From Eledone cirrhosa (Eukaryota), in NCBI GenBank assembly GCA_964016885.1, contig OZ024741.1, positions 320,478,001-320,542,000 on the forward strand: 64,000 bases of DNA. Reading direction: 5' to 3'. Shown piece by piece: positions 101 through 62,208 of this stretch. The stretch's first letter is position 1. The number at the start of each line of letters is the position of its first letter. The notes under the pieces are model-generated. The model did not search any database and was not told where the DNA came from. It saw only the letters and a program-made list of their open reading frames with translations. A program made the translations under genes and the position numbers.

Positions 101-771
101 GGACATGATTTATGATATATTGCTCTGATTATTTAATTTATTAATTCTTCATTGAGCCACATCGTGAACGGTTGCCACATATATATCTGTGACTTTATGT
201 ATATGTAAATCTTTATATTTACTAATCTCCCGTTGGGTTGAGATGCAATTTGGGCGATATTGGGCGGCGCTTTCTAGCAACCAGCCTACTCGCAGTAAGC
301 AAAAAATCACATTCTTTCTAACTTGACCACTGCCACGTCACGATTCTTAGCCATTTTTTAAATCTATTTCTGGCGGGATCGCTTTGGAAAATTAACTGTC
401 CTATTGAGTTTGTCTCCTGATGAGTTCAATACTCGAGATTTATCCTTAATAGGATATCTCAAAATACGAACGAAACCATGGTAGGGATATAATTACGGTA
501 TGTACCCATTTCTTCTAACTTTAAATTTATACGTAATTGTGTATGGTTGACGGTATATTTGGTCAGTTTCTACATGCTGTTGAAATGTTGGGTAAATACT
601 CTATTGTGGTCAACCGCGAAGAGGCTGCTTTCGGTTATTTATCAAATATTTCTTCATAGGAGCCTTTATTCTTATATCCTGGTCTAATTGATTTTTTATA
701 TGGTTAATTATGCTAATTGGGAGAGGAAATGGTATATATTTTAGCTAATAATTCTATGGACATGATTTATG

Positions 772-21284: not shown

Positions 21285-21288
<4 letters not shown>

Positions 21289-24200
21289 TCGAACATAAAC
21301 AGTTCGAATAACGGTGAAATGGAGACTAGAACGTCATGTGACAGACTCTCACCCAACAGGTGCCCCCTGGCTCAGCAGCAGGAACCTGACTGTCAACCAA
21401 ATACTGCTGATGTTGGAGGAAGAAGAAGAAGGAAAGGGGCCAGAACCAACTGGACGAAAGAATTGAATAGAACTGTTATGCAATGCTACCTGAAAAGTAA
21501 CCTCAAGGAGAGGGGCTACAGGAGACGGATGCATAACATCTGGAACGAGATTGGTTTATTTAAATTAGATGAACAAAAATTGGCCGGGCAGGCTCGGGTA
21601 ATAAGAACTAATGGGTGGATAAGCGAGCTGGAACTGGAGGAACTGAGCAGAGAGATTAGCTTGGAGATGGAGGGTGGAGTATGCCAGGCAAACGAGCCAG
21701 TAGGAAATGAAGCTGTAGAGGTCAAGAGAACGGAGGAACCACCCGAAGCAGACAATGATCTGAATACTGAGATAAATAATACCTGGAACAGAGATACGGC
21801 CACTGAGGAGATGAATGCTGACGGGCTAGGACAAGATTCGGTTGACATCCTAAATTTAGTGGTAGATGAGTTGAACAATGATAGTGGGAGACCTATGAAC
21901 CTAAGATTTGTAGACAGGAAAAAGTTAAAAGAAACAACAGCTAGGGTAAACAAAGTCATCCCATACCTTGAGGCGAGGAGTCTTCACCAGTGCAACAATA
22001 TCCTCAAAGCAACAGCAAATACGGTGAGGAAACTACTTGGTATAAAAGCGAGAGGAAACAACAGACAAGAAAGAGCAGAGCCGTGGTGGAAGAAGCGACT
22101 GAGTGGGCAAATCGGGGAAATGAGAAATGACATAGGAAAGCTTGAGTCACTACTGAATGGGACACTAAAAAACATAGGCACTAAAAATAGACTGGAAATA
22201 AAATACAAAACTAGGAGTAAAAAGCTAAATATTATCATAGAGGAATTGAAGCAACGCATTGTAGCAAAGAGTGCCAAAATCAGGCGATACGAGAACAGAG
22301 TCAGTCAGTATAAACAGAACCGCATGTTCGACAACAACCAGAAGATGCTGTTTGGACAGCTTGAGGGGAAAGAAAGAGGCAACGACTTGATCCCTGGGGC
22401 GGAACAAGCTAAAACATTCTGGAGAGGAATATGGGAGCAGGATGTTAGACACAATGCCCAGGCAGGGTGGATTGAGACAGTACAGAGGGAGATCGGTGAG
22501 CAGGCACAACAACAGACTGATTTGAGTATCACAGTTGAAACTCTTAAGGGGCAAGCCAAAAAACTAACCAACTGGAAATCACCAGGCCCAGATGGTGTGC
22601 AGGGGTATTGGATTAAACATTTAACATCCCTCCACCCGAAGCTGACGGCCATGTTCAATGACTGCTTGGTGTCGGGTGAGGTGCCAGAGTGGTTGACAAA
22701 AGGTACCACAGTTCTGATAATGAAAGACCGAAACAAGGGTAATGATGTTACCAACTATAGACCTATCACATGTCTGCCCGTAATGTGGAAACTGTTGACG
22801 AGCATTGTGTCTGAGGAAATCTGCCATCACCTCCACACAAACAACTTGTTACCGGACGAACAGAAAGGATGCCGAAAGAAGTCACGTGGTACAAAGGACC
22901 AGTTGCTTATTGATAAGATGGTAATGGGGAATTGCAGGAGGAGACACACTGATCTTGCCATGGGATGGATAGACTACAGAAAGGCATTTGACATGGTGCC
23001 TCATTCCTGGATCACCAAAAGCCTGGAGATCTTCAGGGTGGCAGATAATATCAGACAGTTGCTGGGCAGGAGTATGGGGTCCTGGGAGACAGAGTTGACA
23101 TCAACTGGAGTATCCTTGGGAAGCGTGAAGATCAAGAGAGGTATCTTCCAGGGAGATAGCCTGTCCCCTCTGTTGTTTGTCCTTGCCCTGATGCCCTTGA
23201 CCATTATGCTGCGAAAAGTGAGAGCAGGATACAAGTTGGGAAGGGGAGAGCTTACCATCAATCACCTCCTCTTCATGGACGATCTTAAGCTCTTCGGGAA
23301 AAGTGAGAAGGAGTTGGATGTGCTTGTTGACACTGTCCGTATTTTCAGCAGTGATATATGTATGCAGTTTGGTATTGGTAAATGTGGAGTCATTGTGATG
23401 AAGAGGGGTAGGTTGAGCAGAAGTAACGGGATCCAGATACCAACAGGTGAGATGATAAAGGAAATTGACTCTGAGGAAGGATACAAGTATTTGGGCGTTC
23501 TGGAGGCTGATGGCATAAAGAACAAAAAAATGAAGGAATTGTTAAGAACTGAATACATTCGGAGAGTAAGGAGCGTATTGAAGTCACATCTGAACAGCAG
23601 AAATGCCATAAGCGCAGTAAATTCCCGAGCTGTGTCTATTATTAGGTACAGTGCGGGAATTCTGAGATGGAATGTTGCTGAACAAAAAGAAATGGATAGG
23701 AAGACTAGGAAGCTATTGACTATCTACAACATGTTCCACAAGAGGAGTGATGTCGATAGACTCTACCTAAGGAGACCTGAGGGTGGAAGAGGTCTTATCA
23801 GCATAGAGGACTGTGTTCAGATGGAGAAAAACAACCTATACAAATACGTGACCTATAGTAAGGAGCCAATGCTCAGAGCTGTACTGAAGGAGGGGACAGT
23901 AGGCCAGGGGATATCCAAGGAGGAAATAACATCAAGGAGGAAGAGCAGCCTTAAGGGAAAATCCCTTCATAGTACCTTCTTTGAGAAAACTGAATTTAGA
24001 GATCCACAGACATGGAACTGGTTGAGAAGAGGAGACCTCAAAAAGGCTACAGAAGGAATGCTAATGGCTGCGCAGGAGCAGGCCCTCAAAACGAAGTGGT
24101 TGAAGCACCATATCTACAAGGAGGAGGCTAGCCCACTGTGCAGGATCTGTGGAGAGAGAGAGGAGACTGTGGCCCACATTGTGTCCGAGTGTAAACACCT

Positions 24201-24790
24201 AGCCCAGACCCACTATAAGGGCTGGAGACACGATGTGATGGGCAGGGTGATCCACTGGCACCTGTGCAAAGTAAACAATCTACCACATTCTGAGAAATGG
24301 TATGAGCATAGGCCAGAGGCGGTGATGGAGAACAGTCAGGTGAAGGTGCTGTGGGATTTTAGGATACAGACGGACAAAAAACTGGAACACAATAGACCTG
24401 ACCTGGTGGTTGTGGACAAAGAAAAAAGATCGTGCCTGATTGTGGATGTGGCCTGCCCGTTCGACACGAGAGTGCAAGAGAAGGAGAGGGAGAAAATTAA
24501 CCGATACCAGGACCTAAAGTGGGAGGTGAAAAGGATTTGGAACTGCCATGAAGTCAAAGTGATCCCGATTGTCATAGGCGCACTGGGGACTATCTCCAAA
24601 GGTTTCCAGGGATGGTTAAAGAAATCGGCCCCTTCACGCTTTTTGGAACGCTTCAAAAGGCATGCTTGCTTGGAACGGCAAGAACCCTCCGATACGTCCT
24701 GAATATCTGAGGCTGCAGGTAGTGGCTTGATATTCAATCCAACGGACTTTCCAGTTAACCAACATCAATGACTGAGATTCAAGGAATAAC
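21285..24790 (+). mobile_element. Dong/R4-clade non-LTR retrotransposon, near intact, in (TAA)n
   Basis: Single long ORF; (TAA)n 5' flank and (AAT)n 3' flank. Confidence 0.93.
21319..24702 (+). CDS. RT + CCHC + restriction-like endonuclease polyprotein (1127 aa; true C-terminus probably -1 frameshifted)
   Basis: WKSPGPDG, NYRPITCL, IDYRKAFD, GIFQGDSLSP, LFMDD, GGRGL, CRIC..H..SEC, RHD, PDL..D..E..K..Y. Confidence 0.92.
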   Translation: METRTSCDRLSPNRCPLAQQQEPDCQPNTADVGGRRRRKGARTNWTKELNRTVMQCYLKSNLKERGYRRRMHNIWNEIGLFKLDEQKLAGQARVIRTNGWISELELEELSREISLEMEGGVCQANEPVGNEAVEVKRTEEPPEADNDLNTEINNTWNRDTATEEMNADGLGQDSVDILNLVVDELNNDSGRPMNLRFVDRKKLKETTARVNKVIPYLEARSLHQCNNILKATANTVRKLLGIKARGNNRQERAEPWWKKRLSGQIGEMRNDIGKLESLLNGTLKNIGTKNRLEIKYKTRSKKLNIIIEELKQRIVAKSAKIRRYENRVSQYKQNRMFDNNQKMLFGQLEGKERGNDLIPGAEQAKTFWRGIWEQDVRHNAQAGWIETVQREIGEQAQQQTDLSITVETLKGQAKKLTNWKSPGPDGVQGYWIKHLTSLHPKLTAMFNDCLVSGEVPEWLTKGTTVLIMKDRNKGNDVTNYRPITCLPVMWKLLTSIVSEEICHHLHTNNLLPDEQKGCRKKSRGTKDQLLIDKMVMGNCRRRHTDLAMGWIDYRKAFDMVPHSWITKSLEIFRVADNIRQLLGRSMGSWETELTSTGVSLGSVKIKRGIFQGDSLSPLLFVLALMPLTIMLRKVRAGYKLGRGELTINHLLFMDDLKLFGKSEKELDVLVDTVRIFSSDICMQFGIGKCGVIVMKRGRLSRSNGIQIPTGEMIKEIDSEEGYKYLGVLEADGIKNKKMKELLRTEYIRRVRSVLKSHLNSRNAISAVNSRAVSIIRYSAGILRWNVAEQKEMDRKTRKLLTIYNMFHKRSDVDRLYLRRPEGGRGLISIEDCVQMEKNNLYKYVTYSKEPMLRAVLKEGTVGQGISKEEITSRRKSSLKGKSLHSTFFEKTEFRDPQTWNWLRRGDLKKATEGMLMAAQEQALKTKWLKHHIYKEEASPLCRICGEREETVAHIVSECKHLAQTHYKGWRHDVMGRVIHWHLCKVNNLPHSEKWYEHRPEAVMENSQVKVLWDFRIQTDKKLEHNRPDLVVVDKEKRSCLIVDVACPFDTRVQEKEREKINRYQDLKWEVKRIWNCHEVKVIPIVIGALGTISKGFQGWLKKSAPSRFLERFKRHACLERQEPSDTS

Positions 24791-24820
<30 letters not shown>

Positions 24821-24822
<2 letters not shown>

Positions 24823-27350
24823 GAGTGCCAAAATCAGGCGATACGAGAACAGAGTCAGTCAGTATAAACAGAACCGCATGTTCGACAACAACCAGAAGAT
24901 GCTGTTTGGACAGCTTGAGGGGAAAGAAAGAGGCAACGACTTGATCCCTGGGGCGGAACAAGCTAAAACATTCTGGAGAGGAATATGGGAGCAGGATGTT
25001 AGACACAATGCCCAGGCAGGGTGGATTGAGACAGTACAGAGGGAGATCGGTGAGCAGTCACAACAACAGACTGATTTGAGTATCACAGTTGAAACTCTTA
25101 AGGGGCAAGCCAAAAAACTAACCAACTGGAAATCACCAGGCCCAGATGGTGTGCAGGGGTATTGGATTAAACATTTAACATCCCTCCACCCGAAGCTGAC
25201 GGCCATGTTCAATGACTGCTTGGTGTCGGGTGAGGGGCCAGAGTGGTTGACAAAAGGTACCACAGTTCTGATAATGAAAGACCGAATCAAGGGTAATGAT
25301 GTTACCAACTATAGACCTATCACATGTCTGCCCGTAATGTGGAAACTGTTGACGAGCATTGTGTCTGGGGAAATCTACCATCACCTCCACACAAACAACT
25401 TGTTACCGGACGAACAGAAAGGATGCCGAAAGAAGTCACGTGGTACAAAGGACCAGTTGCTTATTGATAAGATGGTAATGGGGAATTGCAGGAGGAGACA
25501 CACTGATCTTGCCATGGGATGGATAGACTACAGAAAGGCATTTGACATGGTGCCTCATTCCTGGATCACCAAAAGCCTGGAGATCTTCAGGGTGGCAGAT
25601 AACATCAGACAGTTGCTGGGCAGGAGTATGGGGTCCTGGGAGACAGAGTTGACATCAACTGGAGTATCCTTGGGAAGCGTGAAGATCAAGAGAGGTATCT
25701 TCCAGGGAGATAGCCTGTCCCCTCTGTTGTTTGTCCTTGCCCTGATGCCCTTGACCATTATGCTGCGAAAAGTGAGAGCAGGATACAAGTTGGGAAGGGG
25801 AGAGCTTACCATCAATCACCTCCTCTTCATGGACGATCTTAAGCTCTTCGGGAAAAGTGAGAAGGAGTTGGATGTGCTTGTTGACACTGTCCGTATTTTC
25901 AGCAGTGATATATGTATGCAGTTTGGTATTGGTAAATGTGGAGTCATTGTGATGAAGAGGGGTAGGTTGAGCAGAAGTAACGGGATCCAGATACCAACAG
26001 GTGAGATGATAAAGGAAATTGACTCTGAGGAAGGATACAAGTATTTGGGCGTTCTGGAGGCTGATGGCATAAAGAACAAAAAAATGAAGGAATTGTTAAG
26101 AACTGAATACATTCGGAGAGTAAGGAGCGTATTGAAGTCACATCTGAACAGCAGAAATGCCATAAGCGCAGTAAATTCCCGAGCTGTGTCTATTATTAGG
26201 TACAGTGCGGGAATTCTGAGATGGAATGTTGCTGAACAAAAAGAAATGGATAGGAAGACTAGGAAGCTATTGACTATCTACAACATGTTCCACAAGAGGA
26301 GTGATGTCGATAGACTCTACATAAGGAGATCTGAGGGTGGAAGAGGTCTTATCAGCATAGAGGACTGTGTTCAGATGGAGAAAAACAACCTATACAAATA
26401 CGTGACCTATAGTAAGGAGCCAATGCTCAGAACTGTACTGAAGGAGGGGACAGTAGGCCAGGGGATGTCCAAGGAGGAAATAACATCAAGGAGGAAGAGC
26501 AGCCTTAAGGGAAAATCCCTTCATAGTACCTTCTTTGAGAAAATCTGAATTTAGAGATCCACAGACATGGAACTGGTTGAGAAGAGGAGACCTCAAAAAG
26601 GCTACAGAAGGAATGCTAATGGCTGCGCAGGAGCAGGCCCTCAAAACGAAGTGGTTGAAGCACCATATCTACAAGGAGGAGGCTAGCCCACTGTGCAGGA
26701 TCTGTGGAGAGAGAGAGGAGACTGTGGCTCACATTGTGTCCGAGTGTAAACACCTAGCCCAGACCCACTATAAGGGCTGGAGACACGATGTGATGGGCAG
26801 GGTGATCCACTGGCACCTGTGCAAAGTAAACAAGCTACCACATTCTGAGAAATGGTATGAGCATAGGCCAGAGGCGGTGATGGAGAACAGTCAGGTGAAG
26901 GTGCTGTGGGATTTTAGGATACAGACGGACAAAAAACTGGAACACAATAGACCTGACCTGGTGGTTGTGGACAAAGAAAAAAGATCGTGCCTGATTGTGG
27001 ATGTGGCCTGCCCGTTCGACACGAGAGTGCAAGAGAAGGAGAGGGAGAAAATTAACCGATACCAGGACCTAAAGTGGGAGGTGAAAAGGATTTGGAACTG
27101 CCATGAAGTCAAAGTGATCCCGATTGTCATAGGCGCACTGGGGACTATCTCCAAAGGTTTCCAGGGATGGTTAAAGAAAATCGGCCCTTCACGCTTTTTG
27201 GAACGCTTCAAAAGGCATGCTTGCTTGGAACAGCAAGAACCCTCCGATATGTCCTGAATATCTGAGGCTGCAGGTAGTGGCTTGATATTCAATCCAACGG
27301 ACTTTCCAGTTAACCAACATCAATGACTGAGATTCAAGGAATAACAATAA
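24821..27350 (+). mobile_element. Second, 5'-truncated Dong/R4 copy in tandem
   Basis: Near-identical to copy 1 from about 22267; ORFs 24878-26548 and 26535-27257 are split by a 1-nt insertion near 26544; (AAT)n tail. Confidence 0.93.
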
Positions 27351-27486
27351 CAATAATAATAATAATAATAATAAATAAAAATAAAAATAAAAAATAAAAA
27401 AATAAAAAATAAAAAAAATAAAAAGATATATATATATATATATACATACATACATATACACATACACACATACATACACATACACA

Positions 27487-32980: not shown

Positions 32981-33157
32981 ATATACATACATGCATACAT
33001 GCATACATTACATGCATACATACATACATACATACATACATACATACATACATACATACATACATACATACATACATACATACATACATACATACATACA
33101 TAATGGCTGCCCCATCGTTATCGAATATGGCCATTGCACGATATAACATTATCAATA

Positions 33158-33776
33158 TAAGTATGTGTTACGTACATACATATATGTATACAGACGTACA
33201 GTAGTATGTATATATATATATACATACATGCACACATATATGTATATGTACGTATGGATTCACCGAACATTTATTATAATGCTCGGTGTGTTTGTAAATA
33301 AACATCCCGAATTAAGCCGTAGTGTCTAGCAACCATCGTTGCTCGTTTGTTCAACACTGACAAAGGAACGCTGTACTAGTTTCAAGCTTATTAGCTATCG
33401 TCAGCAACGTATACCTTCATGCCAGATGGTTGAACGTCTGAAAGTATATACTTTCCTTATGCATATTAACGGCTGAGCAGCCTAATTTGTATATCGAGTG
33501 AGTTAATCGACCGGGATACCGAAAACGATAAACGGAAAAAATGAAACCAAATTTCATTTCTCACTCTTAGTATGGCTGTTACTTAAATATAAGTATGTAT
33601 ACGTACATACATATATGTATACAGACGTACAGTAGTATGTATATATATATACATACATGCCCACATATATATGTGTGCATGTATATATATATATACATAC
33701 TACTGTACGTCTGTATACATATATGTATGTACGTATACATACTTATATTTAAGTAACAGCCGTACTAAGAGTGAGA
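33158..33776 (-). mobile_element. ORF-less hammerhead element: about 431-bp unit + about 80-bp partial repeat + fold-back, with 13-bp TSD
   Basis: 33155-33240 repeats at about 33587-33670; inverted repeat 33557-33778; AACATTATCAATA at 33145-33157 and 33777-33789. Confidence 0.75.
33369..33409 (-). ncRNA. Minimal type I hammerhead ribozyme
   Basis: Minus strand reads CGTTG-CTGACGA-TAGCT AATA AGCTT-GAAA-CTAG-TA-CAGCG; palindromic stem III ACTAGT; GUA triplet; U-U at the base of stem II. Confidence 0.8.
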
Positions 33777-34039
33777 AACATTATCAATAATTATCAATTA
33801 ATGATATGTGCAATGCTTGTGCTTGAAGATTTTTTTTTAAAGTGAGGAAAGACTGTGCACTGACCAATCCCACTCCCTGAGCGACAGTAGCTATAACACG
33901 AAAAGAAGAAAACATTAACATCATCGGTAACTACTGAGCCGCAGGATTTATGTCGGTGTTATCCCATACATACATACATACATACATACATACATACATA
34001 CATACATACATACATACATACATACATACATACATACGT

Positions 34040-41379: not shown

Positions 41380-41436
<57 letters not shown>

Positions 41437-41655
41437 TTAAGTTAAAAATGTACATCCACATATGTATACTGAAATACTAGTATGCATATGAATACACACA
41501 CGTATACATATGTAGATGTACCGAGTTTTTCACTGGTCACTTTACTGTGAGTGTCCAGCTATTCTGTATGTAAACACACAGACAAACCGGTTTTTAGAGT
41601 CATACTGGTTTTTGAGGAAACACCTTTCCTCTATTCTCCAGAAAGCCAGACAAGG

Positions 41656-41700
41656 AATATTGAACTAGTTTCGATGTTGTTACATCTCATCAGCAATATT
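41656..41700 (-). ncRNA. Minimal type I hammerhead ribozyme
   Basis: Minus strand reads AATATTG-CTGATGA-GATGT AACA ACATC-GAAA-CTAG-TT-CAATATT; perfect stems I and II; GUU triplet. Confidence 0.9.
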
Positions 41701-42121
41701 TACCTATCTTCCGGCCTTTCTAGAGAATCGTAAAAGCACATATCGTTATATGCTTTTTCTATGAAAATTAGTAGTGGGCAGACTAATTTGCATAGAGCGT
41801 GAGTACGTACCGGTTCAACGGAGACGATAAAAACAAATAACGAAACGAAATTAAATTTCGTTTCGTTTGTAACTCACTTTTGTATGACTGACGCTTAAAC
41901 AATTAAGTTAAAAATGTACATCCACATATGTATACTGAAATACTAGTATGCATATGAATACACACACGTATACATATGTAGATGTACCGAGTTTTTCACT
42001 GGTCACTTTACTGTGAGTGTCCAGCTATTCTGTATGTAAACACATAGACAAACCGGTTTTTAGAGTCATACTGGTTTTTGAGGAAACACCTTTCCTCTAT
42101 TCTCCAGAAAGCCAGACAAGG

Positions 42122-42166
42122 AATATTGAACTAGTTTCGATGTTGTTACATCTCATCAGCAATATT
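42122..42166 (-). ncRNA. Minimal type I hammerhead ribozyme (second copy)
   Basis: Identical to 41656-41700, 466 bp away. Confidence 0.9.
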
Positions 42167-42689
42167 TACCTATCTTCCGGCCTTTCTAGAGAATCGTAAA
42201 AGCACATATCGTTATATGCTTTTTCTATGAAAATTAGTAGTGGGCAGACTAATTTGCATAGAGCGTGAGTACATACCGGTTCAACGGAGACGATAAAAAC
42301 AAATAACGAAACGAAATTAAATTTCGTTTCGTTTGTAACTCACTTTTGTATGACTTGTTTTTATCCCCTCCCCCCAAAAACAGTGCCTACTGTGTGGTGT
42401 ATCTGTATAAGATTGGTGAAAGATGTGACATCTATCTTTAGTAGTTGCAGCAATTACATAGACTCCCAGCAAGAGACGAACTCATATGTTCATTTGAAAA
42501 TACATTCTGTTGCCTGTCAAGTAAGAAGCAATCCGTGAAAAATTCATTCTTAAGACAGATGTGAAATCTTATCGTTAAATACACCAGCTTATCAATATTT
42601 ACATGCAGTCGTGTTTATACCTGCCCACGTACATACTTATAAATTTAATATATCTCACACACACACGCACATACTTACATATATGCATA

Positions 42690-45260: not shown

Positions 45261-45470
45261 GTAATTTGATTGGTTGGTCAATAATTATAATAAATTTCGC
45301 GCCAGTTCGCGTTACAAAGTTCTTCACAAACAGGGGCGGGGGGCTCAGGTTGTTTTTTCATATATGAGTGTTTGAATTTCTTTTTACTTAAAAAAAAGGG
45401 GATCACGAAGGCTTTTTTTTAATAAACGTAATTTGATTGGTTATAAATGAAATTATGTCTGTCACGTGAA
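45261..45470. promoter_or_regulatory. Candidate promoter-like motif cluster (CCAAT, E2F, GC box, CHR-like, E-box)
   Basis: ATTGG 45269-45273 and 45436-45440; TTTCGCGCCA 45295-45304; GGGGCGGGG 45333-45341; TTTGAA 45371-45376; CACGTG 45463-45468. Confidence 0.3.
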
Positions 45471-46043
45471 CAAGTTTTCATTAAAATTTGTGCCCGTATT
45501 TGGAAATCTATTCTGTAGCCTTTTTAGAGAATTTTATGACAAGCAAAAGATAATGGTCAAGAGAAATGGGATGGGAGAATTGTTCTGGTTCAGTGAATAT
45601 GGTTAGTTCGCTGGGGTGTCAGAATTCAGATTTTCTATTGAAATAAAGAAAGTAAAGATATGTATGTTTATTTGTGTGCTTGTGTGTGTGTGTGTGTGTG
45701 TTGCGTGTGTGTGTTTGAATTTCTTTTTACTTAAAAAAAAAGAAGGGCCTCACGAAGGCTTTTTTTTTATAAACGTAATTTGATTGGTTATAAATGAAAT
45801 TATGGCTGTCACGTGAACAAGTTTTCATTAAATATAGCGCCCGTATTTGGAAATCTATTCTGTAGCCTTTTTAGAGAATTTTATGACAAGCAAAAGATAA
45901 TGGTCAAGAGAAATGGGGTGGGTGAATTGTTCTGGTTCAGTGAATATGGTTAGTTCGCTGAGGTGTCAGAATTCAGATTTTCTATTGAAATAAAGAAAGT
46001 AAAGATATGTATGTTTATTTATGTGCTTGTGTGTGTGTGTGTG
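45368..46043. repeat. Tandem duplication, period about 343 bp
   Basis: GTGTTTGAATTTCTTTTTACTT at 45368 and 45711; units end in (GT)n. Confidence 0.9.
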
Positions 46044-46576
46044 TATTGGAAGATGATTCTATTAGTAGAAATGGGGAAGGGAGTTGTGTGTGTGTGTGTA
46101 TATGGGTGTTATGTGTGTGTGTGTGGGAGTATGTTAAGATGGAGAGAATATATATATTTTGTGAGTGTGTATATATATATGTGTGTAGGAAAGTGATTCA
46201 ATTAGTAGAAATGGGGGAGGGAGTTGTGTGTGTGTGGGGTGGGGGTTGTTATGTGTGTGTATGGGTGTTATGCGTGTGTGGGAGCATGGTTAGCATGTTA
46301 AGATGAAGAGAATATATATATATTGTGTGTGTGTGTGTGTGTAGGAAAATGATTCCTTTAGTAGGAATATTTTTGAATGAACATATTTTCCTTACTTATT
46401 GAGTATCTGATCAGAGCTCTATCTCAAAATTATTTTTGAAAAGCATTAGTAATGCGCAACCGGTAAAACTTAAAACCAAAACTGAATACTAACCAATAAT
46501 TTTACTAATTCTCACTTATTCCTAATTAAACTATTTTTCACTGTGAACAATTTGTCAGCATTTCCTATTCCGTTTA

Positions 46577-47135: not shown

Positions 47136-48159
47136 CACTCTTTTATTGTTTGTTTGTTTAATTAATGGATATAACTTGTAGCTACCGCTGGCAGACTCCG
47201 ATGCATTAAGCAAAATTACTCAACGTTGAACATAGCATACATCATAAATTTGGTATCTTGAGGTTAGTGCATGAGTTAAATCCTAAAATGAAAAAGAAAA
47301 GGCTTTAATGTTTCGTAAGAACAAAATACGTATTTCTATGGTCATTGGCATACGCCGTCACATTATCATGCTAGACACTCGGCGACATCGTCAGGAGTAA
47401 AAAAACATTAAACATTCGGTAATCAACGTTTAGTGGCCTTAGAATATAAACAGAGATTTGGTACAGGGGTGGTCCGTCAATCGATGTATTCACTATGACG
47501 GCCCCCATATGACACTATGACAGCCCCCATATACCACACACTCAACAATGTTAAGCGTTGGGATTTGTAGTTTTGAGTGGGTGTACGACTAGCTGTGATT
47601 AATAGCGTCCAATATCAGCACACTGTAGAACGTTGCTGTCAAGCACCCCGCCTTGGTCGCGCCTACAAACTCACGCTGGCAAGCAATGGCTGACATCCAC
47701 ACTCATAAGCGTCTGGTGGAACTGGAAATGTGTCGTTCACTACGAGTTGTTCCCTCCGAATCGCTGCAAATATTTCAGTGGTTCATCCGCATTATCGTTC
47801 TGAGAAATTCGTTCGTGACAACATTTGGCGGCATATATGAATTGTGACACGTGAGAAACTGCTGGAGTTTCGTCTGACCTCGCGTCGACAACTATCACAT
47901 TTTTCTCTCAATGTACAATGAGTCAAAGTCTTTCGCCAAGGAAGACTAGTTAAATCAGTCTTTGCATCGAAGCCAGGAAAGCGCATATGATGGTGATTAT
48001 TTTGACTAGTAAAATGTTCCTAATGTGGAAAAAATCTCAATGTCAGGAAAAATCTGAAAGACGGAAGAGAGCTTTCAATCCAACATAATATATATATATA
48101 TATATATATAAAATAAAGTTAAATAAAAGACAAATGATTAAAATTTAGCTTCGTTTATT

Positions 48160-48214
48160 ACTGCTATATATATTTCAGTGACAGCCATCTTTGGCTGTGA
48201 CCTCTTCAGGCAGT
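48160..48214 (-). ncRNA. Type I hammerhead ribozyme in a pLTR-like segment beside a Penelope element
   Basis: Minus strand reads ACTGC-CTGAAGA-GGTCACAGCCA AAGA TGGCTGTCACT-GAAA-TATATA-TA-GCAGT; palindromic stem III; AUA triplet. Confidence 0.85.
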
Positions 48215-48264
48215 TTGAATTAGTATGGTATAGACAAGTACATATGTTGTTTAGGTGTATAATA

Positions 48265-48346
48265 TTGTCAATACTCTGATATGCCCAGTTCCTTGTTGGG
48301 TTGTTAACAACCCAACAAGGAACTGGGCATATCAGAGTATTGACAA
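48265..48346. repeat. Perfect 82-bp spacerless palindrome
   Basis: 41-bp arms centred at 48305/48306. Confidence 0.95.
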
Positions 48347-51300
48347 AGTGATACATATGATACATTTCCTATTGGTACAGTGGGTTTTCTTAAAAGGGTA
48401 GGTTTTCCTGATCAGGGATCTTATGGTGGTTCCTGGCTTTTCTACCACCTTTATTTTTAAGTGGGTCTTTCTCAGGGCCTTTCTACACTGGTTAGCTAAT
48501 TTCCCTCCAGGGGTGGCGTCCACAAACATGACAGTCTGGTATCTCTGGTGAACAGTAACGGTGAAGTAAACAACAATACATCTAGCAATCATAACAATAA
48601 TAGTAATGCTAATGATAGAAACAACAACAACCACCCTGATAACAATAATAGCAACACACACAACTATGACGATAGATATAATGACAACCCTTAGAGAAAC
48701 TATTTTTCAACCCAGCTGACAAAACATATAAGATGGGTAATATCTATCCTACGAGGTTACCGTTTAATAAAAGAGTTTGCATAGCACAACAAATAGATGA
48801 CGAGACAGAGGCACAGTTCACCATAGCTAGAAATAAGATTAGACAAATAGTAGACAGGTATACTAAGAGACAGAGCAGACCAGAGGCCCAACAACTTGGG
48901 AGGAAACCTGTAGAAGGCTTGGTTAGCCTCAAGCAGCGCACAAGGGATGGTGAGGTAGTGTGTCTACCCACGGATAAGTCTGGTAGGATGTCAATAGATA
49001 GCATGCCGAACTACATCGAGGCTATGCAACCCCACATCACCAACACGGGCGAAATTGCACAACAAACACACGATGGGAGAGAAAAAATCCTCAACGCTCA
49101 CATGATGATGTGGACTGACATCCTAAAGCCAAGCAGACGCACTGCCAACAAATTCCATGCGTCTAAAAATGGCATACTACCCTTGTATGGGCTCCGCAAA
49201 GACCACAAGACAGTCGACGACCCGACAACAGGACCACCAACAAGACCCGTATGCGGAGCTAATATAGCTAGCAACTACAGGATCTCCTACTTCCTCTCAA
49301 TGGTTATACGCCCCATAATCAAGATGTCCCCAGATGTATGTGACAGTACAGAGGACCTCCTCAGTAGAATCAGTGAGTGCAACAAAAACAGGAGCCTATC
49401 CAACTGCATAATAGGCAGCATGGATGTGGTGTCACTGTACCCATCCATTAACATTGATTTTGCTGTGAAAAGATGTGTGGAGATGATCAGTGATAGTGAG
49501 GTGGAGTTCTGCGACGTCGACACAGACGAACTGGGCCTCCTACTTAGACTTACCTTCGACACTGACTACCTAGACAGCCATGACCTTAGATGTTTCTGCC
49601 CTAGTAGACCTATAAGAGGTAGACCGCCCACCATAACCTCAATGGCAAAAAAGACTCCCATGGGAAGGTGGATTGGGTGGACCAAAGCTATACGGACCCC
49701 CCCAAAACAATGATCAGGTAAGAAAAATGGTCGCACATGCAATAGGGGCTAGTATTAAAACTACCCTAAAGGGCCACATATTTAAGTTCAATGAGAAAAT
49801 CCACACCCAAAATGAGGGAGCAGCCATCGGCGTCAGCATAGCTGGTGATGTTGCCAACCTTTTCATGGTATGGTGGGAAAGGAGACTTAAAGATCTCCTT
49901 AATGAAAGCTCCATAGACCTCATCATGTACTCTCGTTATGTAGACGATATCAATATAGTTATAAGAACACCCCCACTAGAGAGCACTAGTAAGTTTTATT
50001 TAGAACGTAGCACGATGGAAAGCATCCAGCAGATAGCTAATTCCATACACCAGAGTATAACTGTAACTATCGACTTCCCTTCCAAACACCCTAACAATAA
50101 ACTACCTGTATTAGACACAGAACTCTGGATTAACACTATAGACGAGAGAGTCCAAATTCTCCACTCACACTATGCTAAACCCATGGCCTCCAAATACCTG
50201 ATACTCAAAAACTCAGCAATGTCCAGTTGTGCTAAGTTTAATATTCTGATCGCAGATTTGGTACGAGTGATGAAGAATGTGTCCCGCATGTGCGACCCAA
50301 CAGAAATGGAAAAACACATCCAACACTTCATCAACCGCATGCAGTTCTCTGGCTACAACCAAAGAGACAGAATCAGAGTATACGAAGGAGCCATGGAAAA
50401 GTATAAGACCCTCATAGAACTGGACATGAAAGGAATTTGTCCATTATACAGGAGCAAATCATGGAATAGCTTAGATAGGGCTAGACATAAGATAGGGAAA
50501 GCCACCTCATGGTACGACAACCAGAGATACCAGAGTGTCATGTTTGTGGACGCCACCCCTGGAGGGAAATTAGCTAACCAGTGTAGAAAGGCCCTGAGAA
50601 AGACCCACTTAAAAATAAAGGTGGTAGAAAAGCCAGGAACCACCATAAAATCCCTGATTAGCAAAACCTACCCTTTTAAGAAAACCCACTGTACCAATAG
50701 GAAATGTATCATATGTAAGGTGAACCCCCGGATAAACTGTAAAACTAGAAACGTAGTCTATAGCATAAGATGTACAGAGGGTACTTGCAGACACATGACA
50801 ACAGCATACATAGGTGAGACAGCTCGTAGCATAGGTGAAAGGATAGTCCAACACTGTGGGGAACTAAAAGGACGAAAAAACGGGTCAGTACTATACGAAC
50901 ATGCTAGACAACAACATGACGGTAATATAGACAACATAGAAATTAGAATAATATCTAAATATAGAAATGACCCAGCAGATAGGCAAATCAGAGAGGCCAG
51001 TGAAATAGAAATTAGAAGACCAAAGCTAAACAAAAAGAATGAATGGAATAACAACAACACCCAAACAAACAACACTGACCTAAGAGAAGTATAAATAAGT
51101 AAATTATATAAAATAAGATAAATAAATAAATAAATAAATACATACACAAGCACAATAACAACAAGCACATAAACACACACTAGTCACCCATCAAACAACA
51201 AACATAACACTATACACACACGCAAACGCATGCGCAAAGAAAACAAAATAAAATAAACAAACAAGCAAATAAATAAATAAATAAATATATAGACAGACTG

Positions 51301-51396
51301 AATAAAAACGGCGTAGACATACAACACAACAGGAGGAAAAAATATAACACCACTGACGATGTTGCAGATGTGCAACGAAAGATTTATGATAAACTA
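48347..51396 (+). mobile_element. Penelope-like element with an inverted internal copy at its 5' side
   Basis: 48347-48549 is the reverse complement of about 50521-50716; RT/GIY-YIG ORFs; hammerhead-like core at the 3' end. Confidence 0.88.
48733..51094 (+). CDS. Penelope-type RT + GIY-YIG endonuclease (one frameshift near 49700)
   Basis: PTDKSG, LYGLRKDHK, PTRPV, SMDVVSLYPSI, GAAIG..VANLFM, RYVDD, LPVLD; NVVYSIRC..YIGETARSIGERIVQH..E..PKLN. Confidence 0.9.
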
Positions 51397-51765
51397 TATA
51401 TATGTGTTTGTGTCTATATTGTATCTGTATTATTTTTTGACCGTCGGTCAGTCAATGGCAACATTGTGGACCGAGTAAGTTAGATTACCGATATAAAAGA
51501 CAGCGAGAAGCGAAAACCAACCAAACAGTGAATGTGTTCTGTTATTAATTCTGGCAATATTACAAAAATATGACCCTCCCCAAGTATAACAATAGTTGTT
51601 TCGACACACGATTTCATATAAAAAACCTCGCAAAACTAATTCATCGCCGCTATATATATACCAATATATATATATATATATATATAACGATGGAAATGTG
51701 GTAAGGAACCAGGTGGACCATAACGCACCAAAGTACTCAATACTTAGGGTAGTAGAGTATGTAAT

Positions 51766-51886
51766 AGGAACGAGTAGGACCGGGACGGCTGAGCTCAAGC
51801 CGTTTCGACGGCTAATTCTGGACGAGAATTGGTCCAGAATTAGCCGTCGAAACGGCTTGAGCTCAGCCGTCGGGATCCTACTCGTT

Positions 51887-59012: not shown

Positions 59013-59152
59013 TGACCAATGTGTATAAAACCTAATACCGCTCTCATACAGTTCAGACTATTATTTCGTGATGAGCAGAAAGTGTGTATATCTATTTTTA
59101 TAAATACGAATGAACATATATACATACATACATACATGTTGATTGGTGATTG

Positions 59153-59204
<52 letters not shown>

Positions 59205-59344
59205 CAATCACCAATCAACATATATGTATGTATGTATATATGTTCATTCGTATTTATAAAAATAGATATACACACTTTCTGCTCATCACGAAATAATAGT
59301 CTGAACCGTATGAGAGCGGTATTAGGTTTTATACACATTGGTCA
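59013..59344. repeat. 332-bp palindrome: about 140-bp inverted arms around (AT)n
   Basis: Arms differ at 2 positions seen; the ORF track shows near-identical 61-aa ORFs on the two strands. Confidence 0.95.
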
Positions 59345-62208
59345 ATGGGGGGTCCATGTATATGAAGAAATATAAAGCAATACAATGAAGAAAACAGAAA
59401 ATAAATAATAAATAGAGAATAAAGAATAAATGAAAAATTAATGAAAAAGTAATGAAAAGGTAATGAAAATGAATATGGAGAAGTGAAAAATAAAATGAAG
59501 ATTCAAATAAAGTAAGATAAAGTGTGTGTGCTATAACCAATCTCAAGGTCAGAAATATGTTGGATAGATTGGTATGAGGTACAAGATGGTAAAAGAATAA
59601 TATAATCAAATAAAATGTGTTTGTGTTATAACCAATCTCAACTTAAAAATAAATATAAGGTGATAAAGTGAAGAGAACAGAAAACAAATAACAAATTAAT
59701 AATGAGAAATCAAAATTGAAAAATTGAAAAATTGAAAAATCAAAAATTAAAATGTGTGTGTGTTATAAAGATGTTGGCCAAATTATAATGGCTGCGTCAG
59801 AATCAATCTCTAGGCTATCATGGTGTCTGCTCAGCCTGGGTTGGTCCCTATGGCTTGAGGGGAGTTCTCAACCTAGGGTGTTGTTATTGCCCATATAGCT
59901 TGAGGGAGGTCTGGCCGAGAGGTGTCTACATGTTCTGGAGAAGTCCCTATAGCTTGAGGGAGTTCACATCTTCTTGTGTTGCTACTGTCCATATATCTTG
60001 AGGGAGGTCCCGGCCCTGAGGTGTCTGCATGTCCCGAAGAAGTCGGTTCTGAGGTTTATCAGGCCGCTTCCACGTCTTAGTATCTCGAGAGTCTCGTTCA
60101 GGCATAGTTTGCATATGCAAGATCCCCCTTTATTGGGTGGTACTTTCCTGATTATGTCCCAGGCCAGAGAGTACGGGGTCCTGTCCAGCTTAAGCTTCCA
60201 GATCAGGTCGGAGAGAGCCGTGCTTTTCCTTTTGGCCTCCTTATTGAAGGAATGGCGATGGTTGAACCAGCGGTCTTTAAAGCTCGTTGATGTGGCTCCT
60301 ATGTAGAGGTGTCGGAGTTGGGGGCTTTAACCCTACAACCGTATACTAGGTTCTTCTTAAGGCATTCATTACCAAGGGGGCATGATTCGGGGTTTCTGCA
60401 GTTGCAGAGGGTTGTCGACCTCTGCGTGCCTAGATTGGGGTTCCCATTAGGTGTTACATGGTGGTCTTTCCCCAGGCACGGTGGGGGTTCGCCAGGTCTG
60501 TTTGGGTTTCTTGGGTGGGCACTGGGTCCCCCCTTCCCTCTTTTCACATGGTTCTGCTGAGTGCTTGTATTGTCATCTTCTGGTTGTGTGTGGGTTTTAA
60601 GCCTACTCCTGTTGATGCTAGCTATGTGTTGGGCCAGATTTCTCGTGGTGGAATACGAGAGCTTCACAGTGTGTCTGTTGAAGATCCTGTGGTATCTATT
60701 GTCCCTCGGGAAGCATTTATCAAGTGCTCCAAAGAATGATCGGGCCAAGCTGTTCTTTAGGGCCGCTGAGTAGGGTGGGTTGTACCACGTGATTTTTCTG
60801 TGTCTCCTCCTATATGTATGGGTCGGGGGCGTCGTGAGTTGTTGCAGATTTGTTGGGTTGCTGGTGGTTCCCGCACTGTTGCTTCCCCTTTGGGCGCTAT
60901 GCGTTTTGCTATCTTCACAGCCCGAATCTGTGGGGTGGTCGTTGCCCGCGATGGGAGATCTATCGTGGGGTGGTCCCCCCCCCCACGTGTCCTGCGGTTG
61001 GGGTCGTTCATCCTGGGGTGGTTAGCGTCACCCCTGAGACTGCTACTCATATTGGGTTTTATCTCATGGTTAAGCGTACTAGTCACCAACGCCCGTGTGG
61101 TGGTGTCGGGCTGATGGTGCCTATATGTTTCTGTTCTGCCTGTATTGTTAGGGTCCCCCCCCCGGGCAACGCGGGTGTGGGTGTCCGTTGGGCCATCCCC
61201 ATCCCGGCGTTTCGGACTATATGTTATATTTTGGCCATGTGCCGCCTTCTTTAGTGCTGCGTTGTAATATTCCGCGTTGTTATCGAATATTTCCTTACTT
61301 GCAGACAGGCTGGAGATCCTGTCCGATACACTCTTCACCACTGCCTTGGTTGTGGATCTAGGGTGGGTTGACTTGGCATTAACATACACGAGTTTCTCGT
61401 TGGGCTTGTGGTAGGGGTAGTATTGTTCGGTGTTCAGGTTTAGGGTGGTGTCTAGGAAGTTAACTACCTTCCTATTTGGGTCTAGTTCTACACTGAGCCC
61501 CTGGTTCTTAAAGAAATGGCGAATACGCCTCCTCATTCCCTCCAACATATTGGTGCTGTGGTCATATACTGTGAATAGAGCATCATCACGATATAATCCA
61601 CCGCCCAGGCAGGCGATTTCATCTTTTATCTACTTCAGTACCACCCGATAAAGGGGGATCTTGCATATGCAAACTATGCCTGAACGAGACCCTGGAGATA
61701 CTAAGAGGTGGAAGCGGCCTGATAAACCTCAGAACCGACTTCTTCGGGACATGCAGACACCTCAGGGCCAAGACTTTCCTCAAGATATATGGACAGTAGC
61801 AACACAAGAAGATGTGAACTCCCCTCAAGCTATAGGGACTTCTCCAGAACATGTAGACACCTCTCGGCCAGACCTCCCTCAAGCTATATGGGCAATAACA
61901 GCACCCTAGGTTGAGAACTCCCCTCAAGCCATAGGGACCAACCCAGGCTGAGCAGACACCATGATAGTCTGGAGATCGATTCTGGCACAGCCATTATAAT
62001 TTGGCCAACATCTTTATAACACACACATTTTAATTTACTTAATTTTTGATTTTTCAATTTTTCAATTTTTCAATTTTGATTACTCATTATTAATTTGTTA
62101 TTTGTTTTCTGTTCTCTTCACTTTATCACCTTATATTTATATAAGGTGATAAAGTGAAGAAAAAAAAAATACTTTTTCATTACTTTTTCATTAATTTTTC
62201 ATTTATTC
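59345..62208 (-). mobile_element. 5'-truncated Penelope-like element (Neptune-like) with a long inverted 3' copy
   Basis: LYRDDA, VNFLDTTLNL, PYHKPN..YVN..STHP, KITWYNPPYS, CNCR..CPL..CL..NLVY, IGATSTSFKDRWFNH, CKLCLNE, CRH; inverted repeat 59649-60144 / 61637-62140. Confidence 0.88.

Follow-up and report, generated by a model that had tools for sequence, protein, structure and literature searches.

The non-LTR retrozymes of animals (Cervera and de la Pena 2020, PMC7229834; bioRxiv 10.64898/2026.07.22.740005) are described as ORF-less units within 150-450 bp, low in GC (under 45-50%), that carry a type I hammerhead with a tiny palindromic stem III, have target-site duplications (TSDs), when present, of more than 4 bp and occur in tandem forms. 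They are further characterised by the lack of an LTR, PBS and PPT, by self-cleavage and by build-up of linear and circular RNA. Which enzyme moves these elements, and whether it does so from circles, is still argued from co-occurrence or homology. The link to Penelope-like elements (PLEs) was drawn from shared ribozymes, co-occurrence and pLTR homology, the latter two also being the arguments for a PLE origin in a 2026 preprint (Li, Clavereau and Pollet, bioRxiv 10.64898/2026.07.22.740005). Retrozyme copying beyond unit length from circles and mobilisation by PLEs are both hypotheses in print, from 2014 and 2020 (PMC4209133, PMC7229834, PMC7761336), and according to one review retrozyme repeats show no motif indicating their partner (PMC7761336).

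For PLEs themselves, the account of Pen2a_Av of Adineta vaga gives direct pLTRs, an adjacent inverted pLTR that overlaps at the 5´ end, a TSD and a 31-bp tail, a form presented as the typical Penelope structure with a short overlap at the head-to-head junction (PMC3846280). Craig et al. (PMC8557442) report the same form with a 30-40-bp tail. Insertions of EN+ PLEs have TSDs near 10 bp, a palindromic junction and an AT-rich target. The purified protein of an anole PLE (Poseidon PAc) is reported to cut and extend both strands, to prefer AT-rich DNA, and to start reverse transcription inside the RNA, in a stem-loop downstream of the hammerhead, and to require sequence lying 3´ of that point; its tail corresponds to the stretch that separates two internal start sites (PMC11167929). 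Protein-free inserts with PLE-type ends and TSDs have been documented as well, among them the Chlamys non-autonomous families and MRC1 (PMC8557442) and the Pen3a pLTR captures (PMC3846280), and pLTR-mediated mobilisation in trans is on record.

Here we describe a small insert in a 64-kb stretch of the genome of Eledone cirrhosa (the window). Judged by its sequence, the element is a new animal non-LTR retrozyme copy: the 432-bp unit is ORF-less and low in GC, the predicted hammerhead motif is of the same type with a similarly tiny palindromic stem III, the TSD is 13 bp and a tandem relative is present (the dimer at 41436-42355). The insert also matches the Pen2a_Av form, including the 31-nt tail, and it resembles EN+ PLE insertions in its 13-bp TSD, palindromic junction and target of 77% AT, and in a hammerhead motif placed upstream of the putative internal stem-loop start. 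It differs from EN+ PLEs of about 3 kb in that the unit holds no RT or GIY-YIG ORF, and from PAc in the distance between cut site and inferred start, 216 nt as against about 90 nt. For the Chlamys and Pen3a inserts an autonomous family is known that has 3´ sequence or pLTRs in common with them, whereas for the unit no such match was found in the window, and the Chlamys elements are portrayed as having no canonical hammerheads, whereas the unit has a predicted one. Compared with described animal retrozymes, the insert stands apart by its single predicted ribozyme and 1.18 units, by its inverted head and 31-nt tail, and by a hairpin-loop end that it has in common with the dimer. A full-text search covering few subscription papers found no retrozyme insertion described with a tail, an inverted head or a common start hairpin, and nothing on cephalopod retrozymes.

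Anatomy of the insert and its target site

The insert interrupts a family B repeat, as originally predicted: the flanks at 33100-33157 and 33779-33966 match consecutive parts of four other B copies, and in the alignment family B resumes in register past the insert. The 13-bp direct repeats at the two ends are identical, and no third copy was found on either strand of the window. In all four other B copies the 13-mer is single in the alignment. The split B copy has diverged from the others by about 10-14%, and two substitutions relative to the majority of the four, private to this copy, are common to both flanking 13-mers. Given the single 13-mer in other B copies and the shared private changes, the direct repeat is a target-site duplication and not a part of the host consensus, in agreement with the original prediction, and since both 13-mers carry the private changes, the duplication arose in the split B copy after its divergence. 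The limits of the TSD are blurred by overlaps of 4 nt at the left junction and 2 nt at the right. Neither junction has a poly(A)/(T) run, the longest T run being 2 at the left and the longest A run 3 at the right, so that the insert is also free of the poly(A) or LINE-type tail that had been named as a sign against the original prediction. With about 1% change per copy and identical TSDs, this is a real, fairly young insertion.

Of the 619 bp of the insert, 432 bp are the full unit, 79 bp a second round and 108 bp an inverted copy, with a direct part of 511 bp, or 1.18 units (Table 1). The earlier figures were about 431 bp for the unit and about 80 bp for the second round; the tandem offset is 431 bp, owing to a 1-nt indel relative to the 432-bp unit. 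The unit joins itself seamlessly and leaves no ORF remnant at the junction. The longest ATG ORF overlapping the insert is 53 aa, the insert contains no RT or GIY-YIG ORF, and a repeat comparison gave no evident LTR pair.

The predicted 222-bp palindrome at 33557-33778 is present, with 95-nt arms of 99% complementarity and full arms of 108 identities, two mismatches and three gap positions, but it does not follow on the second round: the final 33 nt of the unit and the second round together make up its left arm, and only 108 bases are new. The inverted repeats are offset by 31 nt and are not flush with both insert ends, as the mirror position of the inverted copy's outer end is 33559, 31 nt 3´ of the end of the direct copy. 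Allowing for the junction overlaps, the tail ranges from 27 to 33 nt in this single instance. The 14-bp word at the palindrome apex has a 10-bp core native to the unit. The unit holds several self-complementary words, two of them longer than the apex word, so the position of the apex is not special. Each of the three overlapping copies (round 1, round 2 and the inverted arm) carries about one private substitution. One site groups the inverted arm with round 2 and another with round 1, a pattern that does not discriminate between snap-back and double priming or between a circle and a tandem source.

Table 1. Features of the insert at 33158-33776, its host repeat and the related dimer.
Positions	Strand	Feature	Values
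33103-33157	+	Family B host repeat, left part, including the left TSD copy	83-92% to the start of 4 other B copies
33145-33157	+	TSD, left copy, 13 bp; its final 4 nt are also those of the hairpin loop of the unit	
33158-33589	-	Full 432-bp ORF-less unit; RNA-sense 3´ end at 33158	36% GC
33368-33410	-	Type I hammerhead motif (predicted): stem I 6 bp, stem II 4 bp plus U-U closing mismatch, palindromic 2-bp stem III	
33470-33575	-	Structured region immediately 3´ of the putative start sites (RNA sense)	Folding z about -2.1 (dimer -2.3)
33580-33595	-	Small hairpin at the unit junction; the direct copy has its RNA-sense 3´ end at the 4-nt loop, 33586-33589 (inferred start A)	-3.7 kcal/mol
33590-33668	-	Second round of the unit, 5´-truncated, 79 bp; pLTR-like direct repeat of 33158-33237	
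33662-33675		Palindrome apex, 14-bp AT-rich self-complementary word where the two orientations meet	
33669-33776	+	Inverted head-to-head copy, 108 bp	
33746-33776	+	31-nt extension on the inverted end only; Penelope-type tail (inferred start B)	
33777-33789	+	TSD, right copy; the inverted arm also runs on into its first 2 nt	
33790-33964	+	Family B host repeat, right part	86-88% to 4 other B copies
41436-42355	-	Related insertion, 1.97 tandem units of 466 bp, hammerhead motif in each	

A hammerhead motif and a tandem relative

By motif scan, the minus strand carries a type I hammerhead motif (33410-33368), with a predicted cut after 33374. Rfam gave no matches in the window at gathering thresholds; at E values up to 10 there were 96 sub-threshold matches over the element, almost all to hairpin or low-complexity models and none to a hammerhead. 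The minimum-energy fold of the motif is likewise not a hammerhead (z near 0), which is unsurprising since stem III of the motif needs a dimer, as discussed in PMC4209133. Stem II is weak and has a U-U at its base, as does helix II of HHR_Amex2 of axolotl (PMC7229834). When the motif of the unit was compared with that of the dimer, both partners differed in four stem pairs, where slid controls gave 0-1 such pairs, and 25 of 26 cells were paired; the comparison involves only two distinct sequences, and 38 of 500 shuffles do as well.

The dimer at 41436-42355 shares 226 identities over 324 aligned positions (70%) with the core of the unit, with a score of 136 against a shuffle maximum of 40. Its own two units differ at 2 of 454 positions. 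It adjoins a (TA)n run, and neither a TSD nor an inverted end was found there. The dimer and the unit at 33158 have the same RNA-sense 3´ end position and the same unit junction, with 227 nt from the cut site to the 3´ end in the dimer and 216 nt in the insert at 33158-33776. At this shared end both have a hairpin; those hairpins are weak, -1.9 kcal/mol for the dimer, where the end is the first loop base, and -3.7 kcal/mol for the unit, where the four loop nucleotides match the end of the TSD. The structured region just beyond (33470-33575) is a candidate protein-binding motif.

An active retrozyme is defined by at least two ribozyme-bearing tandem units. The dimer has two and might release a cut-to-cut monomer, whereas the copy at 33158-33776, with one hammerhead motif in 1.18 units, ranks as a monomer-type derivative and, because of its single predicted ribozyme, is probably a dead end for monomer production.

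A profile search found only the unit and the dimer in the window outside low-complexity hits. Scans with the motif gave no match in viral contigs, one in prokaryote genomes, on a bacterial contig, and none in one metagenome scan and one in another (L001, 45% GC, with long ORFs), whose likeness is limited to the motif. A search of sequencing runs listed 24 rows, of which 20 contain part of the stretch, three of them with at least half of the words, all from one sample, and none of the 24 is an RNA run. The query took in family B and low-complexity sequence, and these shares are given no weight as evidence.

Neighbouring elements and hairpins

The window is repeat-rich, with non-LTR RT ORFs and Penelope-like ORFs, and AT/AC microsatellite is abundant in the region. 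One Penelope-like element (48685-51650, plus strand) lies in two frames, with RT and GIY-YIG-like motifs and a hammerhead-like motif near 51352. Its ORF at 49637-51094 has a weak RT match, its best relative is an Octopus vulgaris protein with 64% identity, and its relatives include one named as GIY-YIG domain-containing. An inverted internal segment of this element at 48352-48549 is 98% identical to 50520-50717. A second Penelope-like remnant on the minus strand (59649-62140) has a 496-bp inverted repeat (59649-60144 and 61637-62140, 95%) holding a 99-bp internal tandem. Further hammerhead-like motifs with long stem II regions were seen at 417-475 (plus strand, with a palindromic stem III) and 47394-47333 (minus strand).

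Three other complex hairpins occur in the window, with arms of 40, 41 and 166 bp. The first (51784-51871) is GC-rich and adjoins a (TA)n run. The second is a perfect 82-bp palindrome (48265-48346) at the end of a segment (48111-48346) in which a minus-strand hammerhead motif (48209-48173) lies beside a (TA)n run; it is a second head-to-head fold, in another family, and its 41-bp arm, adjoining the hammerhead motif, reaches no evident tail. The third (59013-59344) is centred on a (TA)n run, and no flanking direct repeat of at least 7 bp was found.

A young non-LTR element with a 1138-aa ORF, which we take to be R4/Dong-like, is followed by a partial tandem copy of 99.3% identity (21286-27374), and (AAT)n runs bound both. 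Finally, a tandem dimer of a 347-bp unit (45368-46044) has no hammerhead core in the scan and no likeness to the retrozyme unit.

Insertion route, template and alternatives

We consider it probable that a protein-free, hammerhead-bearing 432-bp unit (a non-LTR retrozyme) was inserted here in one event by a Penelope-type RT and GIY-YIG endonuclease supplied elsewhere in the genome. By this route, the endonuclease would make two nicks about 13 nt apart, one in each strand of an AT-rich site, and the top-strand end would prime cDNA within the RNA at the hairpin loop, through a 4-nt match. The RT would then read 511 nt, crossing the cut site of the hammerhead as well as the unit junction, a second cDNA would be primed by the bottom-strand end 31 nt further 3´, through a 2-nt match, and the two cDNAs would be joined at a self-complementary word. 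An ATT motif begins at the top-strand nick and is absent at the bottom one, and is too weak to serve as evidence. For the step that yields the second cDNA, we lean somewhat towards double priming and give appreciable weight to a snap-back of the first cDNA; self-priming has been proposed for palindromes of this kind (PMC3846280).

Mobilisation in trans is likely, judging from the anatomy of one insertion. The Penelope-like ORF at 49637-51094, in the same window, is in keeping with this route. The discreteness of the insertion, the TSD and the Penelope-type anatomy all agree with what the original prediction had held on this point, but there is only one such insertion, and the unit does not resemble the Penelope-like ends of the window: comparison of the unit core with seven candidate terminal regions of these elements gave no significant likeness (best E 0.08), and thus no partner was identified. 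Two anatomical details that the original prediction had not included, the 31-nt tail and the hairpin-loop 3´ end, point to Penelope machinery; they come from one insertion and one relative. By a rough estimate, with arm lengths distributed over 20-170 bp, the tail length could arise by chance about 1 time in 10.

Since the template needs an intact cut site and unit junction, the candidates are a tandem transcript that stayed uncut, with about 1.5 units or more, and a religated circle. Cut linear monomers are excluded as templates, as cut sites are read through and neither of the two 5´ ends (33668 and 42355) lies on a cut site, and template jumping between ribozyme-cut monomers is rejected, as the seamless junction keeps the sequence between the cut site and the start. 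We put the uncut tandem transcript at about an even chance. A religated monomer circle copied more than once round, which would be a sub-case of the favoured explanation, has a somewhat smaller share. Retrozyme circRNAs are reported to be abundant in coral, mussel and axolotl (PMC7229834), the RT crossed one cut site in the insert at 33158-33776 and two in the dimer, and a circle, having no 3´ end, needs the internal initiation of which a PLE RT is capable (PMC11167929). Should initiation depend on sequence lying 3´ of the start, at most about n-1 units would come from a linear source of n units; linear internal starts would thus shorten arrays each round, and some step would have to re-expand them. 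The three overlapping copies, each with about one private substitution, are as expected for one template and later mutation, but a near-identical tandem source, such as units that differ as little as those of the dimer, would yield the same pattern. Also against a circle, partial tandems are the normal form of full-size PLEs, hammerhead cleavage was dispensable and uncut RNA the main substrate in one in vitro system (PMC11167929), in vitro cleavage is reported as absent in 8 of 9 Xenopus dimers (bioRxiv 10.64898/2026.07.22.740005), and stem II of the motif in this unit is weak. Copying around a circle, with which the original prediction had found the more-than-unit length to agree, is therefore compatible with the insert, but a circular template has no advantage over a tandem transcript left uncut.

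A fuller version, in which one enzyme dimer carried out the complete Penelope reaction on a retrozyme circle, nicking both strands and making two cDNAs from fixed internal sites 31 nt apart that a conserved hairpin and the structure downstream would mark, one of them more than once round a religated 432-nt RNA, is in our judgement unlikely. If it were true, the Penelope head-to-head inversion and tail would be the outcome of double target priming, and this small RNA would be a substrate for testing it.

Alternatively, the unit might be a pLTR-bearing remnant of a deleted or truncated autonomous Penelope and not an independent retrozyme family. The PLE-insertion anatomy would suit such an origin, and truncated PLEs are described as leaving single hammerheads genome-wide (PMC4209133), but the self-junction of the unit is seamless and free of any ORF remnant, and the 70%-identical relative, a tandem dimer, shows this junction too. 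These two junctions suggest that the short unit propagated as such, and we regard the remnant as improbable.

Still less probable is an event at the DNA level, be it a tandem fragment captured at a staggered break with a template-switch hairpin, a MITE-like element or an assembly fold-back. The three other complex hairpins and the microsatellite-rich surroundings would be in keeping with such events, but the left end coincides with the end of the dimer at the hairpin loop. In addition, the inverted copy overshoots by 31 nt rather than ending flush, and the dimer has no inverted end, both of which speak against a MITE-like element. A read fold-back artefact is unlikely, as the arms differ at two bases and an indel, and family B is back in register. 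TSDs of variable length and 5´ inversions also occur in LINE insertions. Insertion by a LINE-type enzyme, for instance that of the R4/Dong-like or other non-LTR elements whose RT ORFs exist in the window, with a twin-primed 5´ inversion, would account for such features here but is the least credible of the alternatives, given that there is no poly(A) or simple-repeat tail and that both outer ends lie near the same internal site, offset by a 31-nt tail, an arrangement described as PLE-specific (PMC11167929, PMC8557442).

On the preferred reading, insertion of the retrozyme unit by Penelope machinery acting in trans, this locus alone confirms an expected link and overturns nothing. Insertion anatomy is nevertheless a more direct kind of evidence than co-occurrence or homology. 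The unit is a short RNA suited to the existing in vitro Penelope assay, and the combination of a TSD, an inverted head, a tail of Penelope length and a 3´ end common to two diverged families is a signature that can be counted across whole genomes.
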